Positions 9,958 to 62,563 of a stretch of DNA of 64,000 bases are shown piece after piece. The stretch's first letter is position 1. Every line of letters begins with the position of its first letter. The notes below the pieces were generated by a model. The model was not told where the DNA came from, searched no databases, and worked only from the letters and a program-made list of their open reading frames with translations. The stretch is from an uncultured Poribacteria bacterium (lineage in GTDB: Bacteria; Poribacteria; WGA-4E; WGA-3G): contig OX638351.1 of assembly GCA_951813565.1 (NCBI GenBank), positions 3,520,001-3,584,000 of the forward strand. The letters are read 5' to 3'. The translations under genes and the position numbers were made by a program.

Positions 9958-9991
9958 CAAATCAACGCCAAATGCGCTTTTGGCATTTGGC
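9958..9991 (+). mobile_element. 34-nt AATCAAC-hairpin micro-element inserted in a GTAG REP
   Basis: CAAATCAACGCCAAATGCGCTTTTGGCATTTGGC interrupts GTAGTCGGCCAATTCATTGC|GCCTCT. An uninterrupted relative is at 38734-38759. Confidence 0.75.
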
Positions 9992-10029
9992 GCCTCTTAC
10001 ATTGCTGAAAACTGATAACTGACAACTGC

Positions 10030-11097
10030 TCAATAACGTGCCTTATCTTCTGCTTCAACTATCTCTTTGCCGATTGAAACACCAAATTTGTCTGCACATT
10101 CCTGAAGTTGAATGTTGATCGTATCTGGTATCTCAATCCCGTTCTTTAGACGTTCCGCGCGGTAGCGGGATTCAAAATCCCCTGGCGCTAAGACTTCATC
10201 AAATCCAGAGGCAGGAGGCGTATCTTTGATAACATCTAAAAAAGCACGAACGCCTTTCTGGTATTCTGCAATCGGTGTAAACGCTTTGACATCAATGGCC
10301 TGCATGAAGATGCCACCCATACGTCCAGTTTCAGCATCAAACGTTCCCGCCAATCCGCCGAGTAGACAAGTAAACATTGCGAGTGCGTAGCCTTTATGCC
10401 TGCCGAATGCAAGCAGCGCGCCCCCATCGTAGAAATCAGCAGGTTTAATACTTGGTGCTCCGTGTTTATCTAAAATGCATCCTTCCGGAAGTTCAGTGCC
10501 TTTACTACGCGCAACCTGAATTTTTCCTTCAGCAATCATACTCGTAGCATAATCAACAATGAATGGCGTATCATCGCCTGTCGGAACACCGATAGCAATA
10601 GGATTGGTACTGAAAGTGCCTTGTGAGCCTCCATAGGGCACTGTTGGTCCTGCACCTTTGCCACCCATTCCGACAGAAATAAGCCCAATACAACCCGATG
10701 CAGCTGCTTCTTCCGCATACTCACCTAAACGACCAATATGTCCAGTATTGAAAATGCTAACACAACAAGAAGCAGATGTCTTTGCTTTTTCAATCGCTTT
10801 TCGGATTGACCATCGTGAAACATAGTGTCCAAAAGACCCTTTTCCATCAACGCGTAAGGTATTGTCAGTTTCAGCTACGACTTCAGGTTCTACGGAAGGT
10901 TTTATATGTCCAGAGTCAATCCCTCTGATATATGCTGGGATTCGAAGCACTCCATGTGAATCATGTCCTGCTAAATGCGCTTTTACAAGAATCTCGGCAA
11001 CATCGCCTGCAATGTGTCTAGAGGCGCCTGCAGCAACAAAGATAGTTCGTGCCATTGCATGCAGGTGAGGCGCGTCAAATAGATGCGTTTTTTCCAT
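10030..11097 (-). CDS. Ldh_2 family (malate/L-lactate/ureidoglycolate-type) dehydrogenase
   Basis: GHDSHG, GHIGRLGEY, STNPIAIG, DYATS, HKGYALA motifs. Confidence 0.9.
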   Translation of the reverse strand: MEKTHLFDAPHLHAMARTIFVAAGASRHIAGDVAEILVKAHLAGHDSHGVLRIPAYIRGIDSGHIKPSVEPEVVAETDNTLRVDGKGSFGHYVSRWSIRKAIEKAKTSASCCVSIFNTGHIGRLGEYAEEAAASGCIGLISVGMGGKGAGPTVPYGGSQGTFSTNPIAIGVPTGDDTPFIVDYATSMIAEGKIQVARSKGTELPEGCILDKHGAPSIKPADFYDGGALLAFGRHKGYALAMFTCLLGGLAGTFDAETGRMGGIFMQAIDVKAFTPIAEYQKGVRAFLDVIKDTPPASGFDEVLAPGDFESRYRAERLKNGIEIPDTINIQLQECADKFGVSIGKEIVEAEDKARY

Positions 11098-11259
11098 ATA
11101 TTCGTCCTTTGAGATAAAGTATGTTTGGTATAAGATAATTGCGAAAATCTGCTCCTATTTTATGTGATATGCTTTTTTTGTCAAGGAAAACATGATAGTT
11201 GATTACGCAGTACAGTGCTGCTATACTATTCGAAAAAACTACTATTGGAGTATCAAGAT

Positions 11260-12339
11260 ATGCAGCAGGTTACAATATATCGTGAGTCAGGACGCTTTGC
11301 AGGCTGGCCAGCGAACTACGGTATCTGGTCATGGGAAAACGAAATCGTTGTCGGTTTTACCGTAGGATACCACAAGTCAGACGCAGGTTTTCACCGTAGA
11401 GACCGTGACAAACCCTTTACAGCGATGCAAGGACGAAGCACAGATGGCGGCGAAACATGGGTGGTATCAGAGACTCCTTGTCAGCTGCCCGGCACAGGCA
11501 CTTTATCTGCAGATGAACACGTGGTGGGCAAACATAAATTGCAAGGCAATACAGCATTTTGCACACCGCAAAGCGTCAATTTTGAACATCCTGATTTTGC
11601 TTTGATGTGCAGTAGGACTGGCTTGAGAGCAGGTGCACATTCATGGTTTTATACCTCTACTGACCGTTGCCACAGTTGGGATGGCCCGTTCCAACTACCG
11701 ATGTTTGGTTACACAGGAATTGCAGCACGCACGGATTATCTCGTTTCAAGTTCTGATAAGTGTTTACTGTTCCTCACCGCGTCTAAAGCAAATGGAGAAG
11801 AAGGCTTGATATTCTGTGCACGCTCTATTGATGGTGGAAAATCCTTTTCACTATTATCACAAATTGGTCCGGAGCCTGAAGGTTTTGCAATTATGCCAGC
11901 AAGTGCGCGACTTTCAGACTCTCGAATTTTAGTTGCCGTCCGATGCCGTGGACAAGGCAAGAAAGATTGGCAAAACCTGCAAAACTGGATTGATCTCTAT
12001 ACTTCAGATGATAACGGACAGACTTGGAATTATATGAATCGACCTGTTGAGGATACAGGGCGAGGCGGAAACCCACCGACGTTAACCCGCCTGCTTGATG
12101 GTAGATTGTGCCTTACTTATGGTTATCGGGATGCGCCGCATCGTATCTGTGCGAAGTTGAGCAGTGATGATGGAAGGACTTGGGGTGAAGAGAGCGTTTT
12201 GCGAGATAACGGCGGCGATCACGACATCGGGTATCCGCGCACTGTCCAACGTCCCGATGGTATGATTGTAACAGTCTACTATTTTGATGAAGAACCAGAT
12301 GGCGAACGATTCATTGAGGCAACGTTGTGGAAACCTTAG
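11260..12339 (+). CDS. Sialidase-like BNR/Asp-box beta-propeller protein
   Basis: Repeated Asp-boxes (STDGGETW, SIDGGKSF, SDDNGQTW, SDDGRTW) and DIGYP. GGAG RBS before ATG 11260. Confidence 0.8.
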   Translation: MQQVTIYRESGRFAGWPANYGIWSWENEIVVGFTVGYHKSDAGFHRRDRDKPFTAMQGRSTDGGETWVVSETPCQLPGTGTLSADEHVVGKHKLQGNTAFCTPQSVNFEHPDFALMCSRTGLRAGAHSWFYTSTDRCHSWDGPFQLPMFGYTGIAARTDYLVSSSDKCLLFLTASKANGEEGLIFCARSIDGGKSFSLLSQIGPEPEGFAIMPASARLSDSRILVAVRCRGQGKKDWQNLQNWIDLYTSDDNGQTWNYMNRPVEDTGRGGNPPTLTRLLDGRLCLTYGYRDAPHRICAKLSSDDGRTWGEESVLRDNGGDHDIGYPRTVQRPDGMIVTVYYFDEEPDGERFIEATLWKP

Positions 12340-60988: not shown

Positions 60989-61224
60989 GTAAAATAACAT
61001 TTACCACACTTGTAGTACGGGACAGCAAACGTCTTGATAGCAATGTTGATCTCGTACTACCTGCTGCTAACAGAAGTTGGTGTATAGTTGTCTGGATTAC
61101 AGATGACGCAGGGAACTTGTAGTAGCAGAATTTGTTGCACGTCCTACTGACGGTCAATTTCCTACTACAAACCCCTCTATCATTCCATCACAAATGAACC
61201 TCCTCGTTAACTCTGGATGAGACC

Positions 61225-62274
61225 ATGAAAAACCGTAATTACAACACCCTTCCTTTGTTCGTTGTCTTGATACTTACATGCTCTGCAGTGCTTGGGACTA
61301 TAGCACAAACAGATGATGAACCCTTACAAGAAAAAAAGAAAACGTTATCACCTATCTGGTCACTTGAATTTAGTCCTGATGGCAAAACACTTGCTGTGGG
61401 AAAATATCAGTGGGTAGAGCTTTGGGACCTTGAAACCAAGGAGATGATACACGTCTATGAACCACACGCCGGACGAGTACGCTGTCTCAAGTTTTCAACG
61501 GATGGCAAAATGTTATACGCTGGCGGCGGTCAGGCAGCGCAAAGTGGTGAAATCCGTCTCTGGGATGTTGCTTCAGAGGAACTCATCAAAACGTTCGAAA
61601 TTCACGGTGACACCATTGAATCTATCGCTATCAGTCCAGATAACGCTAAATTACTCACCGCGAGCATGGACGAATTTAGCACTGTCATTGACTTAGAAAA
61701 ACTTGATGAAAATACGCCTATAGACGAACAAGCAAAATGGTTAACACAACACGTTGGAAGAGTGCTTAGCACACTTTACCATCCAAACGGCAACTACTTT
61801 GTCACCGGTAGTGAAGATAAGACCCTAAAAGTGTGGAACCCAGAAGACTATACGGTGCTCGTGAGTTTTGATGGAAACGATGACTCAGTTTACTCGCTCG
61901 CCTACGCAACACAAGAAAACCTTATTATTTCTGGTTCTGCTGATAACGTAGTCCGGTCATGGAGAGTCACGCAGAACAATGGTAATACCCGCGGCGCGCT
62001 TGCTCGACAATACGGCGGACATAGAGGTCCTGTTTATAGTGTTGACTGTGGTGTTTGGAACAACCAAGAAGTTATCGTATCCGGTAGTGCCGACACTTCT
62101 GTGATTATATGGAACATCGGCAGCGGCAATCGGGTCCGAACCTTTAGTGAGTCTACAGATGCTGTCTATGTTGTACGCATAAGCCGTGATGGCACTCGCG
62201 TCGCCGCTGGCAGCCGAGATGGAAAAGTTCGAATCTGGAATATCAGGAACAATAGATTAACCCACGAATTCTAA
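61225..62274 (+). CDS. Secreted WD40-repeat protein
   Basis: Signal peptide and about 7 WD40 repeats. Confidence 0.88.
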   Translation: MKNRNYNTLPLFVVLILTCSAVLGTIAQTDDEPLQEKKKTLSPIWSLEFSPDGKTLAVGKYQWVELWDLETKEMIHVYEPHAGRVRCLKFSTDGKMLYAGGGQAAQSGEIRLWDVASEELIKTFEIHGDTIESIAISPDNAKLLTASMDEFSTVIDLEKLDENTPIDEQAKWLTQHVGRVLSTLYHPNGNYFVTGSEDKTLKVWNPEDYTVLVSFDGNDDSVYSLAYATQENLIISGSADNVVRSWRVTQNNGNTRGALARQYGGHRGPVYSVDCGVWNNQEVIVSGSADTSVIIWNIGSGNRVRTFSESTDAVYVVRISRDGTRVAAGSRDGKVRIWNIRNNRLTHEF

Positions 62275-62315
62275 GATTATTATAGTGGAAACGTTGTCCC
62301 GAATTCTGCCTATTA

Positions 62316-62563
62316 TAACGTGAGTTTGATAATTAGATTGAATATAGTCCGTTGGGTAGAGCGGACGTGAAACCCAACAATTCAACCGCCTTGAGAGTCC
62401 TAAAGAGTTGGGTTTCACTTATTTTTTCAGAAATGTAGACCTCAAATGGGTCAACAACTTCTCTTTAGAGGCTGTTTTTTATCGCCCATTTTCGTTCTAC
62501 CCCACCGAATGCCATAGGCGCATTCGGTGTTGATTCCCTACGGGATTTATCAAACTCACGTTA
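62316..62563. mobile_element. MITE-like element with 17-bp TAACGTGAGTTTGATAA inverted ends
   Basis: Perfect TIR pair, same ends as 47783-48116. Contains GGGTAGA REPs and a micro-element (62504-62537). Confidence 0.8.

Follow-up and report, generated by a model that had tools for sequence, protein, structure and literature searches.

Tag-hairpin units in the window

The window, that is, the whole 64-kb stretch of Candidatus Poribacteria DNA under analysis, carries in its spacers a family of short units in which a tag containing AATCAAC is followed by a hairpin. With 53 occurrences, AATCAAC is over-represented in the window (15.7 expected; at most 30 in any of 100 shuffles). A covariance model made from 22 copies, with which the window was scanned with filters off, gave 41 matches at E≤1 (15 full-length at E<1e-6), among which a nine-unit array accounts for 5 full and 4 overlapped ones. 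The strong matches all fall within the spacers where the initial annotation had placed the family, and its presence there is confirmed. The window holds 19 units that are full or nearly so (9957; nine at 16332-16646; three at 21464-21566; 21581; 38876; 47713; 47988; 59343; 62504), together with one type-B-like unit at 16996, 3 tagless hairpins and 4 tag-only fragments. The features are as follows, with model scores in bits.

9956..9991, + strand: type A unit, tag CCAAATCAAC and hairpin GCCAAATGC/GCATTTGGC, within the REP GTAGTCGGCCAATTCATTG^CGCC (model match 9957-9995, 55 bits)
16219..16293, + strand: composite of a type C-like unit (AAATCAACGCTATGAATGCC...), a nested tagless hairpin (16244-16268) and a truncated second tag (16278-16293), from the sequence and the model scan
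16332..16646, - strand: nine identical tandem type A units, period 35 (51-55 bits)
16749..16774, - strand: tag-only fragment (CCAAATCAACGCTGAATAATACC; weak match, 14.3 bits)
16967..17031, - strand: type-B-like unit with variant tag AGAAATCAAC (16996-17029), beside a GAATGCC/GGCATTC hairpin (16967-16990); fold -3.1 kcal/mol
21464..21566, + strand: three tandem 34-nt type A units, stems TGAATAC, AGCATGC and AGCATGC (59.3, 40 and 39.8 bits)
21581..21615, - strand: type A unit separating the GTGGGAG tag of a REP from its stem, without target duplication (53.3 bits)
34836..34944, - strand: two truncated units (tag and 5' arm; 34836-34851, 34929-34944) and a tagless AGAATAC hairpin (34896-34920) (14.0, 14.2 and 29.5 bits)
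38876..38911, + strand: type A unit with two stem mismatches, in the 3' arm of a GTAGGCGCGC... REP (GCAAAGCG^CGCCTAC; 48 bits)
47713..47753, + strand: unit with decayed tag (TTTTCAAC) and intact CCGAATGC/GCATTCGG hairpin (39.8 bits)
47988..48022, - strand: type A unit, tag GTGAATCAAC (53.3 bits)
59295..59382, + strand: composite of a tagless AGAATAC hairpin (59310-59332) and a type A unit with a broken 3' arm (59343-59382) (25.8 and 34.2 bits)
62504..62537, - strand: type A unit, tag GGGAATCAAC, stem ACCGAATGC (54.1 bits)

Several hosts can be read from the flanks of these units. The unit at 9958 and its REP are common to three species (also G003 and G020), and its excision leaves an 18-mer with 85 occurrences elsewhere in the genome. 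The composite at 16219..16293 interrupts the repeat ...GAAACCTA^AATTTAAGG, and the orthologous site of G052 holds the uninterrupted host GAAACCTATAGCTGTCAACTTAAG, i.e., it is empty where the window is filled. The nine-unit array (Tandem Repeats Finder, 16332-16663: 9.5 copies of 35 nt, 99% matches) adjoins with its 3' end the stem CGGGGTTGAAAACCCC of the REP GTGGGAGGGGTTTTCAACCCCG (16311-16332, + strand); the pair at 16967..17031 is nested in a GTAGGGGCGGG... REP; the three-unit array (3.0 copies of 34 nt, 21464-21566) stops at the foot of CGGGGTTGAAAACCC; and the first truncated unit of 34836..34944 adjoins CTCCCACAAG of a REP. Excision at 21581 restores CGGGGTTGAAAACCCCTCCCAC, whose host family has filled and empty paralogues with identical flanks. 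At 38877, excision restores the GTAGGCGCGC... palindrome, and a related host family, TACAAAACG^CGCCTACCG, exists in both filled and empty copies. Deletion of the unit had been said to restore a REP at 9958, 21581 and 38877, and 21581 to lack a target duplication; both statements hold. The unit at 62504 sits at one end of a non-coding repeat (~62316-62564, about 210-250 bp) with >20 genome copies (self-BLAST of 61201-64000).

Structure of the unit

The non-coding unit, 33-36 nt in total, consists of an unpaired (single-stranded) 5' tag, (C)CAAATCAAC, followed directly by a hairpin of 9-10 bp. The tag is 10 nt long, with TG-, GG- and AGA-AATCAAC variants, and the conserved block of the genome's units spans -3 to +34 relative to AATCAAC, with background level outside it. 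The initial annotation described a single AATCAAC-hairpin element; the tag is indeed common, but behind it stand two main hairpin types, A (412 units in the genome) and B (149), and a minor one, C (27). Folded as single-stranded DNA, the window units reach -10.5 to -12 kcal/mol with the tag left unpaired (the array unit is weaker, -5.4), and no T-run follows the hairpin. Arrays are direct repeats, not inverted doublets, and their steps across the genome measure 34 nt (59 steps), 35 nt (31) or 36 nt (2).

That the stems vary while pairing is kept was borne out in 22 distinct copies, in which 96.4% of cells are paired and both sides have changed in 5 of 10 pairs (28 cells). The covariation score of 0.381, compared with 0.153 in shuffles, was reached by 0 of 500 shuffles, and all slid controls scored ≤0.071. 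The inner C-G pair of the proposed cap is found in 20 of the 22 copies. Stems differ between subfamilies and species; the tag is constant across the genus.

Insertion into other hairpin repeats

Genome-wide, the pattern AATCAACGCYRAATRC has 314 occurrences (0 in the reversed control), and AATCAAC plus a hairpin occurs at 700 sites, with 588 bona fide units at 496 loci. When 33-36 nt are cut out, the 18-mer formed across the junction (9+9) recurs elsewhere in the genome for 338 of the 588 units, compared with 7 of 5000 random intergenic sites; the control covers 4 deletion lengths and the units 80 offset combinations. The junction is without a tag piece for 232 units, which reduce to 78 distinct junctions. 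Filled and empty copies sharing identical 30-nt flanks, with no target duplication, were seen for 13 host families within the genome. The G052 site is in addition the single orthologous empty/filled pair found; the k-mer contigs of four sequencing runs end at each repeat cluster. A unit is either there in full or missing altogether, and units occupy at least 78 different sequence contexts. The left edge slides to -2 or -3 in most hosts (0 in the CCCATA^GGTGT host) and the right edge moves along, leaving an ambiguity of 1-3 bases at each edge. Because exact excision restores known sequences and filled and empty hosts have identical flanks, the units are inserted elements; they sit within GTAG/GTGG REPs, in the loops of hairpins and beside each other. 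That the hosts are repeats is in itself only a roughly two-fold enrichment, since a quarter of random intergenic 18-mers (1253/5000) are already repeated.

The contexts are mostly other hairpin repeats: the GTAG/GTGGGAG tag-stem border of a REP, the loop formed by a REP or a second unit, or a position directly beside a unit. The earlier claim that every clear copy lies in or beside a GTAG/GTGG REP is right as to nesting in REPs but does not extend to every copy. Type B lies in a predicted loop in 11 of its 16 distinct hosts. For type A the rule is not clean: 44 of 60 distinct hosts have the unit in a predicted stem, and in 22 of these it sits at the final pairs of the unit before it. In 316 distinct contexts, G stands at +1, +2 and +3 of the 3' flank at 64, 53 and 60%, and no conserved 4-5-nt target was found on the 5' flank. 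On the 3' side of the unit, a hairpin begins at a distance of ≤4 nt in 45 of 271 contexts; on the 5' side, one ends equally close in 13 of 251. The comparison figure for adjoining hairpins at random intergenic sites is 187/3000.

Many copies multiplied later as passengers of larger host repeats. Identical flanks of ≥30 nt recur, 65 units are contained in repeated segments of ≥400 bp, the 62504 unit belongs to its ~210 bp repeat, and the recurrent AGCATGC+CAAATGC dimer exemplifies a composite-host amplification from which much of the copy number arises. It could be argued from this that the units are not themselves mobile but are modules of mosaic BIME-like REP clusters that spread with their hosts, with “empty” copies made by precise hairpin-stimulated deletion or slippage; the recurrent two-unit module, the homogeneous arrays and the 1-3 bases of junction homology would fit slippage. 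As a general explanation this is highly improbable. One to three bases is very little homology for slippage, and the unit, often letter-identical, occurs in the 78 non-tag junction contexts of unrelated host families, which include several REP types, loops of other units and the G001 repeat GCGGATTACGCGGATT, of which G000 has 0 occurrences; one sequence in unrelated hosts cannot result from deletion. The 588 units comprise 173 distinct cores, and a single identical 33-nt core in 30 different flank contexts speaks for recency.

Genomic placement and distribution

The units are almost all intergenic, with 12 of 496 loci inside crude genes, and the spacer types that hold them track spacer length. 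Their orientation to genes is near-random (135 co-directional vs 176 anti-directional). By gene overlap, orientation and spacer type, the tag-hairpin unit is not a transcript-level signal. The 700 sites divide into 387 on the + and 313 on the - strand, mixed in every 250-kb bin, and the genome's units have no replication-strand bias.

The tag CCAAATCAACG is present in 13-519 copies in all 38 of 38 genomes of one Candidatus Poribacteria genus (sponge symbionts), whereas 113 genomes from other genera have ≤24, with 0-9 in the reversed controls. Among these genomes, the tag is amplified only in that one genus. Gene identity within the genus is only 70-88%, and the constancy of the 10-nt tag across this divergence argues for sequence-specific recognition. 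Type B units begin with the same 22 nt in G000 (111 copies), G001 (77), G023 (43), G010 (30), G006 (37) and G049 (171), with 0 in controls.

Two explanations bear on this pattern. A cellular job (a site for a nucleoid or regulatory protein, an RNA stabiliser or a terminator) might keep the tag-hairpin, with its spread secondary; the genus-wide conservation of the tag and the intergenic location agree with it, and REPs elsewhere are described as having such roles. We consider it very unlikely in view of the near-random orientation, the missing T-run, a copy number that differs 40-fold between sister species, the piling up of copies in arrays and, in G023, in one 120-kb variable island, and the absence of an Rfam match at gathering score. 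The second explanation is a host replication or repair route, in which forks would switch template between folded hairpins at 1-3 bases of microhomology without a dedicated enzyme. Junction edges that slide together, hairpins as targets and the failure to find a dedicated gene are in keeping with template switching, but the tightly fixed unit length, the constant tag and an amplification limited to one genus, when REP hairpins are widespread, leave it only a slim chance.

Candidate mobilising functions

The initial annotation proposed mobilisation of the units in trans by a Y1/HUH enzyme. In such a model a RAYT or an IS200/IS605 TnpA would bind the hairpin, take its guide from the bases 5' of the stem, and cut and join single-stranded DNA without target duplication. 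The anatomy is suggestive. The unpaired conserved tag directly 5' of the hairpin stands where REPs have GTAG and IS200/IS605 elements have their guide tetranucleotide (PMC8266576); target duplication is absent, and the targets are hairpin loops and feet. G000 has 10 PF01797 matches, 5 of them RAYT-like, and two of its RAYT-like genes have a unit ~170 nt upstream in the same orientation. Mean tag number is 155 in the 19 genomes with a RAYT-like match of 40-69 bits vs 75 in the 19 without, although related genomes are not independent, and the four genomes with fewest tags (13-20) are without such a match.

Each of the 21 RAYT-like genes checked, from 19 species, lies in its own GTAG-REP array; a unit comes within 350 nt of 3 of them, on one side only, and none of the 21 has units on both sides, the arrangement that the Y1 proposal had suggested looking for. 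No IS family ends in units: among 131 multi-copy IS-size segments, 3 have a unit ≤100 nt from an end and 0 at both ends, and the ends of the genome's IS200/IS605 copies are unrelated to units. Four of 40 genus genomes (G001, G023, G010 and G024) have no PF01797 match at E≤0.001, yet hold 33-104 tags. For instance, G001 is 97% complete with 102 tags, G023 is one contig with 104 tags and a 6-unit array, and G010 has 62 tags; these three, all well assembled, carry 30-77 type B copies sharing the first 22 nt, and a RAYT-like query at E≤10 found nothing in them. G009, on the other hand, has 21 Y1 matches but 13 tags. The lack of a conserved 5' target and of strand bias also speaks against a Y1 enzyme. 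Y1/HUH mobilisation of the units is not supported, and the evidence leads away from a PF01797-type Y1 transposase as their mobiliser, so that this route is unlikely. The hairpin-single-stranded DNA chemistry suggested with it is plausible, but the data indicate no Y1 gene, and no dedicated mobilising gene was found among the RAYT-like genes and IS-size segments. What stands of the mobile-element proposal is a set of minimal, single-hairpin, non-coding insertions with exact junctions and covarying stems.

The best explanation, to which we assign a probability of about 0.7, is that the units form a family of non-autonomous insertion elements, 33-36 nt long and confined to one genus, each made of an unpaired 5' tag and a 9-10 bp hairpin. 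A trans-acting protein encoded in the host genomes would recognise the tag and folded hairpin on single-stranded DNA, cut on both sides of the unit and join it into exposed single-stranded spots of other folded hairpins. Direct arrays may then form by repeated insertion at the same spot or by rolling-type copying.

Comparison with known systems

A literature search returned no description of the units, and the initial annotation, too, had not recognised them as a described element; four motif strings occur in no relevant paper, and no paper found links Poribacteria with REP, RAYT or hairpin repeats. The nearest known systems are the small dispersed repeats (SDR) of Nostoc, compared here by description only, and REP/BIME. 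SDR1-8 of Nostoc punctiforme and its relatives reportedly comprise eight families of 21-27 nt. Like the Poribacteria units, SDRs are very small (<40 nt), hairpin-bearing dispersed repeats, almost solely intergenic, with other repeats and one another as insertion sites, exact junctions and no assigned enzyme. SDR5 has 21 nt and sits between the third and fourth base of HIP1, and SDRs are reported only from Nostocaceae. In contrast, the Poribacteria units have 33-36 nt with a separate 10-nt unpaired tag, and they target REP hairpins in a host genome with only 50 HIP1 sites.

REP/BIME/REPIN elements with RAYT (TnpAREP) are likewise palindromes of 20-40 nt outside genes, having a conserved unpaired motif at the 5' stem foot, high copy number, subfamilies with covarying stems and vertical inheritance within a lineage. 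However, the unit tag is AATCAAC rather than GTAG or CGTC, units flank no RAYT gene on both sides, and their arrays are direct rather than inverted doublets. Moreover, units sit inside genuine GTAG/GTGG REPs, which themselves flank RAYT-like genes in this genome. The ends of IS200/IS605 and their non-autonomous derivatives share the hairpin with a guide-like 5' sequence and the lack of target duplication, but have two different ends where the unit is one hairpin; the units also differ in having neither a 4-5-nt 5' target nor strand bias, in persisting in genomes that lack a PF01797 match, and in being unrelated to the genome's own IS200/IS605 ends. Finally, REP palindromes serve as landing sites for IS1397 and other REP-targeting IS (Tobes and Pareja 2006; PMC1525189); these are full-size, transposase-encoding elements, whereas the 33-36-nt Poribacteria units encode nothing.

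Structure and covariation of the repeat unit

The window contains 53 copies of the motif AATCAAC, where 15.7 would be expected. Read directly, the spacers listed in the initial annotation contain one recurring unit, which consists of an unpaired tag, mostly CCAAATCAAC, and a hairpin immediately after it. When the window was scanned with a covariance model derived from 22 distinct copies, all strong matches fell in these spacers, in agreement with that annotation. In all, the window holds 19 units that are full or nearly so, along with one type-B-like unit, three hairpins that lack a tag, and four fragments that consist of the tag alone. 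Tandem Repeats Finder (TRF) reports an array of 9.5 copies of 35 nt (99% matches) and a second of 3 copies of 34 nt. As single-stranded DNA, the units fold at about -10 to -12 kcal/mol and leave the tag free. Conserved positions extend from -3 to +34 relative to AATCAAC, with background level beyond both edges. Type A is laid out as tag, GC-NNNAT(G/A)C, a GCGTTTG-like loop, the returning arm, and GC; type B as tag, GGTAT or GGTCC, GAATGCC, 4-5 nt, GGCATTC, and CCC(G).

The earlier claim that the stem varies while pairing is kept was borne out by covariation among 22 distinct copies from several species. Pairing is retained in 96.4% of cells, and in 5 of the 10 pairs both partners are altered (28 cells). 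The observed covariation score, 0.381, compares with 0.153 in shuffles; none of 500 shuffles reach it, and all slid controls score 0.071 or less. Genome-wide, tagged perfect 7-bp arms are dominated by CAAATGC (152) and AGCATGC (114), followed by TGAATGC (64), CGAATGC (27), CAAATAC (15), and TGAATAC (15).

A sister family of hairpins lacks the AATCAAC tag and has the arm AGAATAC (about 48 hairpins genome-wide; window 34896-34920, 16244-16268, and 59310-59332). These hairpins often have GAATCATG before them and lie nested in or beside AATCAAC units; they may be elements of the same kind with a second class of tag.

Abundance and placement in the genome

The window sits in a 5.43-Mb single-contig genome (G000), in which a restricted 16-mer pattern of the unit occurs 314 times vs. 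0 for the reversed control. AATCAAC is followed by a hairpin at 700 sites, 588 of which fit the family (412 type A, 149 type B, and 27 type C). The 588 units occupy 496 loci: 437 single units and 59 arrays of 2-9 units, arranged head-to-tail with periods of 34, 35, and 36 nt (59, 31, and 2 steps). Only 12 of the 496 loci lie inside crude ORF-based genes (≥450 nt), and the type of spacer that hosts units tracks spacer length. Relative to neighboring genes, 135 are co-directional and 176 anti-directional. The 700 sites display no replication-strand bias, with 387 on the plus and 313 on the minus strand, mixed in all 22 bins, in an assembly whose GC skew is not clean.

Recent spread is indicated by an identical 33-nt core found in 30 different flank contexts; 173 distinct cores exist among the 588 units. 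Many copies, however, are passengers of larger repeats, and 65 units lie inside repeated segments of at least 400 bp. A non-coding repeat of about 210-250 bp (window ~62316-62564; more than 20 copies at 88-96% identity) has the AATCAAC unit at 62504 as one of its ends. A two-unit module, AGCATGC plus CAAATGC, is also recurrent and makes alternating arrays.

The genome is very rich in insertion sequences, with 218 repeated segments of at least 600 bp and families of about 1380, 1430, 1470, 920, and 1165 bp at 7-19 copies. Other features of the window include:

18476-19897, an IS copy
30130-33880, minus strand, three tandem paralogous genes (400, 399, and 417 aa), a set that appears as an internal repeat in self-BLAST
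40241-42042, plus strand, three tandem paralogous genes of 189 aa each

Insertion into host repeats

Evidence for insertion comes from an excision test, in which 33-36 nt were removed and the resulting 9+9 junction 18-mer was looked for elsewhere in the genome. The junction is present for 338 of the 588 units, and for 232 it is free of tag pieces, representing 78 distinct junctions. Random intergenic sites were positive in 7 of 5000 cases, these controls being run at 4 lengths and the units with 80 offset combinations. About a quarter of random intergenic 18-mers (1253/5000) are themselves repeated in this genome. In 13 host families, filled and empty copies have identical 30-nt flanks. Comparison of filled with empty copies in these families reveals no target duplication, as the initial annotation had noted at 21581.

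The hosts are diverse. Insertion between the tag and the stem of a REP is seen in CTTGTGGGA^GGGTTTTCAACCCC and TTGTAGGAG^GGGTTTGTAACCCC (^, insertion point), both of which have filled and empty copies, as do GTAG^GGCGGGGTC, GTAGTCGCGCAATTCATT^GCGCC, and, within a REP loop, GGGCAC^GGAGACCC. The loop of a type A unit, ATGCG^CGTATGGCAT, is a further such host and receives type B. The junctions map to the left of CAAATCAAC and to the right of the stem. Relative to AATCAAC, most hosts have the left edge of the insert at -2 or -3, and 1-3 bases are ambiguous; in the host CCCATA^GGTGT, the insert begins at AATCAAC itself and its end is shifted one base later.

The subfamilies differ in landing site. 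Of 16 distinct type B hosts, 11 have the unit in a predicted loop. Among 60 type A hosts, 44 insertions fall in a stem, 8 at the 5' foot, 6 in a loop, and 2 externally, and half of the stem hosts (22/44) have the insertion where a preceding unit ends. Type A follows no clean rule; a simple one, that it always lands at a GGGG hairpin on the 5' foot, did not hold. G predominates in the 3' flank of the unit (64% at +1, 53% at +2, and 60% at +3). In 45 of 271 contexts a hairpin begins within 4 nt on the 3' side of the unit, and in 13 of 251 one ends within 4 nt on its 5' side, as compared with 187 of 3000 random intergenic sites.

Distribution among Poribacteria

A 17-mer of the unit is found almost only in Candidatus Poribacteria among the matches listed (at least 110 stretches). 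All 38 genus genomes counted carry the tag CCAAATCAACG, at 13-519 copies with G000 the highest; 113 genomes of other Poribacteria genera have no more than 24 copies, and reversed controls there give 0-9. In the sister genus (57 genomes), tag counts are at background level. Type A stems of G000 occur in all 24 other species that were searched (1-360 copies); in one genome of the genus, G001, which has 102 tags, they occur on a single one. The first 22 nt of type B are conserved (G000, 111 copies; G001, 77; G023, 43; G010, 30; G006, 37; G049, 171). Type B in G001 occupies the host repeats CGCGGATTACG^GATTACGCGG, and the 16-mer GCGGATTACGCGGATT of this host repeat is absent from G000. Plasmid and phage collections contained no match to the unit. 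Viral contigs gave no type B match, and their four type A matches were rejected as chance, being in coding DNA without a hairpin.

Orthologous spacers change quickly between species. In 80 kb each of G006, G003, G020, and G052, only 6-14 kb are collinear with the window, and these contain 4 real units. The REP and unit at 9958 are common to the window, G003, and G020, and the spacers of other species are unrelated. At the site of window units 16219-16293, G052 has an uninterrupted host repeat; conversely, G006 carries a REP plus unit in a spacer that is empty in the window (11098-11214). Logan contigs of X1, X4, X8, and X9 (four studies) aligned to window 20001-40000 end at repeat clusters (e.g., 21455/21626 and 38758/38774); none spans a unit, and the joints are cross-repeat artefacts.

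G023 has a tag-dense island (C1:4355001-4475000; L203-L208), with about 105 tags in 120 kb. The island is crowded with genes for WD40 and TPR proteins, for restriction-modification systems, two of them type ISP, and for AbiEii-like ATPases; it also has one phage-type integrase gene and many ORFs without a Pfam family. A Pfam search of 96 ORFs of this island found no HUH or transposase gene.

Relation to Y1 transposases

The initial annotation attributed the units to mobilization in trans by a Y1/HUH enzyme. The anatomy of the unit fits this chemistry. According to PMC8266576, the GTAG of REPs is located 5' of the palindrome, where IS200/IS605 elements have their guide, and cleavage by TnpAREP takes place at CT on either side. 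A search with the Y1 transposase profile PF01797 gave 10 matches in G000: five IS200/IS605 copies, which have tnpB and ends unrelated to the units, and five RAYT-like genes. The related features of the window are as follows:

29331-30130, REPtron with a RAYT-like Y1 gene, one of the five of G000 (minus strand, ~29.5-30.1 kb), that has one in-frame TAG; its product has an HUH-like PDHVHAV and a C-terminal RYCYENPVRHG
29331-29356 and 29496-29520, inverted GTAGGAGCGACCTCC(C/T)GGTCGCGAC REPs flanking this gene
57616-57745, 2.8 tandem copies of a 46-nt sequence made up of a GTGGGAGGGGTTTTCAACCCCG REP and a spacer

A REP array of the latter kind also follows a RAYT-like gene in G006 (L219).

Each of 21 RAYT-like genes across the genus lies amid its own GTAG/GTGG REPs. 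The predicted flanking of Y1/HUH genes by AATCAAC hairpins was not found, as none of the 21 has units on both sides and 3 have one unit within 350 nt. Genes of any kind with units within 250 nt on both sides number 12, which was judged to be roughly chance level. Nor do units form the ends of any IS family: among 131 repeated segments, 3 have a unit near one end and none at both.

PF01797 has no match in 4 of 40 genus genomes, namely G001 (97% complete, 4 contigs), G023 (92%, one contig), G010 (94%), and G024 (73%), which nonetheless carry 33-104 tags. A RAYT-like query finds nothing in G001, G023, and G010 even at E ≤ 10; the same query retrieves 58-59% identical proteins in G017 and G002. 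G009 has 21 PF01797 matches and only 13 tags, the fewest in the genus. Most of these matches are broken into two parts at one common TAG, as if an IS200/IS605 copy carrying this in-frame stop had multiplied in a burst. The mean tag count is 155 in genomes that have a 40-69-bit RAYT-like match and 75 in those that do not (19 genomes each), a weak tally, since related genomes do not count as independent and the REP targets are themselves made by RAYTs. Thus the chemical part of the Y1 proposal fits the anatomy of the unit, but no Y1 gene is tied to the unit family.

A possible mode of mobilization

The reading that we put forward tentatively, at a probability of roughly 0.3, is that an enzyme other than a Y1 transposase, conserved in this one Poribacteria genus, would recognize the 10-nt tag plus any stable hairpin and carry the 33-36-nt unit, in single-stranded form, into other folded hairpins where these are exposed. 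The two subfamilies would share the tag and differ in landing, type B in loops and type A beside stems and itself. If true, this would amount to a transposition system of a new kind, serving the smallest class of mobile DNA. How DNA elements of less than 40 nt move has been a question since the Nostoc small dispersed repeats were described, and we know of no enzyme that moves them.

The family is unusually tractable, with a fixed 10-nt tag, exact junctions, hundreds of recent copies, and two subfamilies with different landing preferences. Copy number spans 40-fold over about 40 sequenced sister species, and the amplification is absent from sister genera in the same taxonomic family. Given the tag, the junctions, and this range across species, a phylogenetic-profile search for the enzyme is feasible, followed by an oligonucleotide cleavage and joining assay. 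In practical terms, the units break short-read assemblies at every spacer, and they drive fast turnover of intergenic DNA in these sponge symbionts.

Comparison with known repeat classes

Rfam has no match at gathering score in the window. The unit motif strings were not found in the relevant literature searched, which included no paper linking Poribacteria to REP, RAYT, or hairpin repeats.

Several classes of repeat share some features with the units. CRISPR arrays differ in having unique spacers; the units abut at their 34-36-nt periods. MITEs derived from DDE elements differ as well, as the units have no terminal inverted repeats, no target-site duplication at the 13 host families, and no place at IS ends. 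A MITE of a different kind does occur in this genome: it is about 91 nt long, has the ends TACCAAATTA.../...TAATTTGGTA, is TA-flanked, and contains a GTAG REP (window 16655-16760 and G000:C1:3952975-3953057). It interrupts one copy of an IS, which thereby has an extra 93 nt; the IS is intact at three other sites.

Like IS200/IS605-type elements or their miniature derivatives, the units make no target duplication. On the other hand, they have a single hairpin rather than two distinct subterminal ones, lack a conserved 4-5-nt target (5'-flank information is near zero beyond -3), display no replication-linked orientation bias, as far as the GC skew of the assembly allows this to be read, and persist in genomes without a PF01797 match.

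As in the REP/REPtron system, the units are short extragenic palindromes at high copy number. However, they lack GTAG or CGTC at the stem foot, their conserved block is CCAAATCAAC, and the GTAG/GTGG motifs belong to their hosts; none of the 21 RAYT-like genes is flanked by units on both sides. In the REP system, inverted doublets (REPINs) are the replicating unit; the 59 arrays run head-to-tail.

The small dispersed repeats (SDRs), as Elhai is said to have described them in 2008, are 21-27 nt long and insert exactly into other repeats and into one another. The units are likewise inserted exactly, both in other repeats, as seen in filled and empty hosts, and in each other, as with type B in the type A loop. 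According to passages in citing papers, SDR5 is 21 nt, lies inside HIP1, and is confined to Nostocaceae. Compared with SDRs as described, the units are longer (inserts of 33-36 nt), carry a separate tag, belong to another phylum with only 50 HIP1 sites, and target REPs. The closest described systems are the Nostocaceae SDRs, REP/BIME, and REP-targeting IS elements, and the units are filed here among the very small mobile hairpin repeats.
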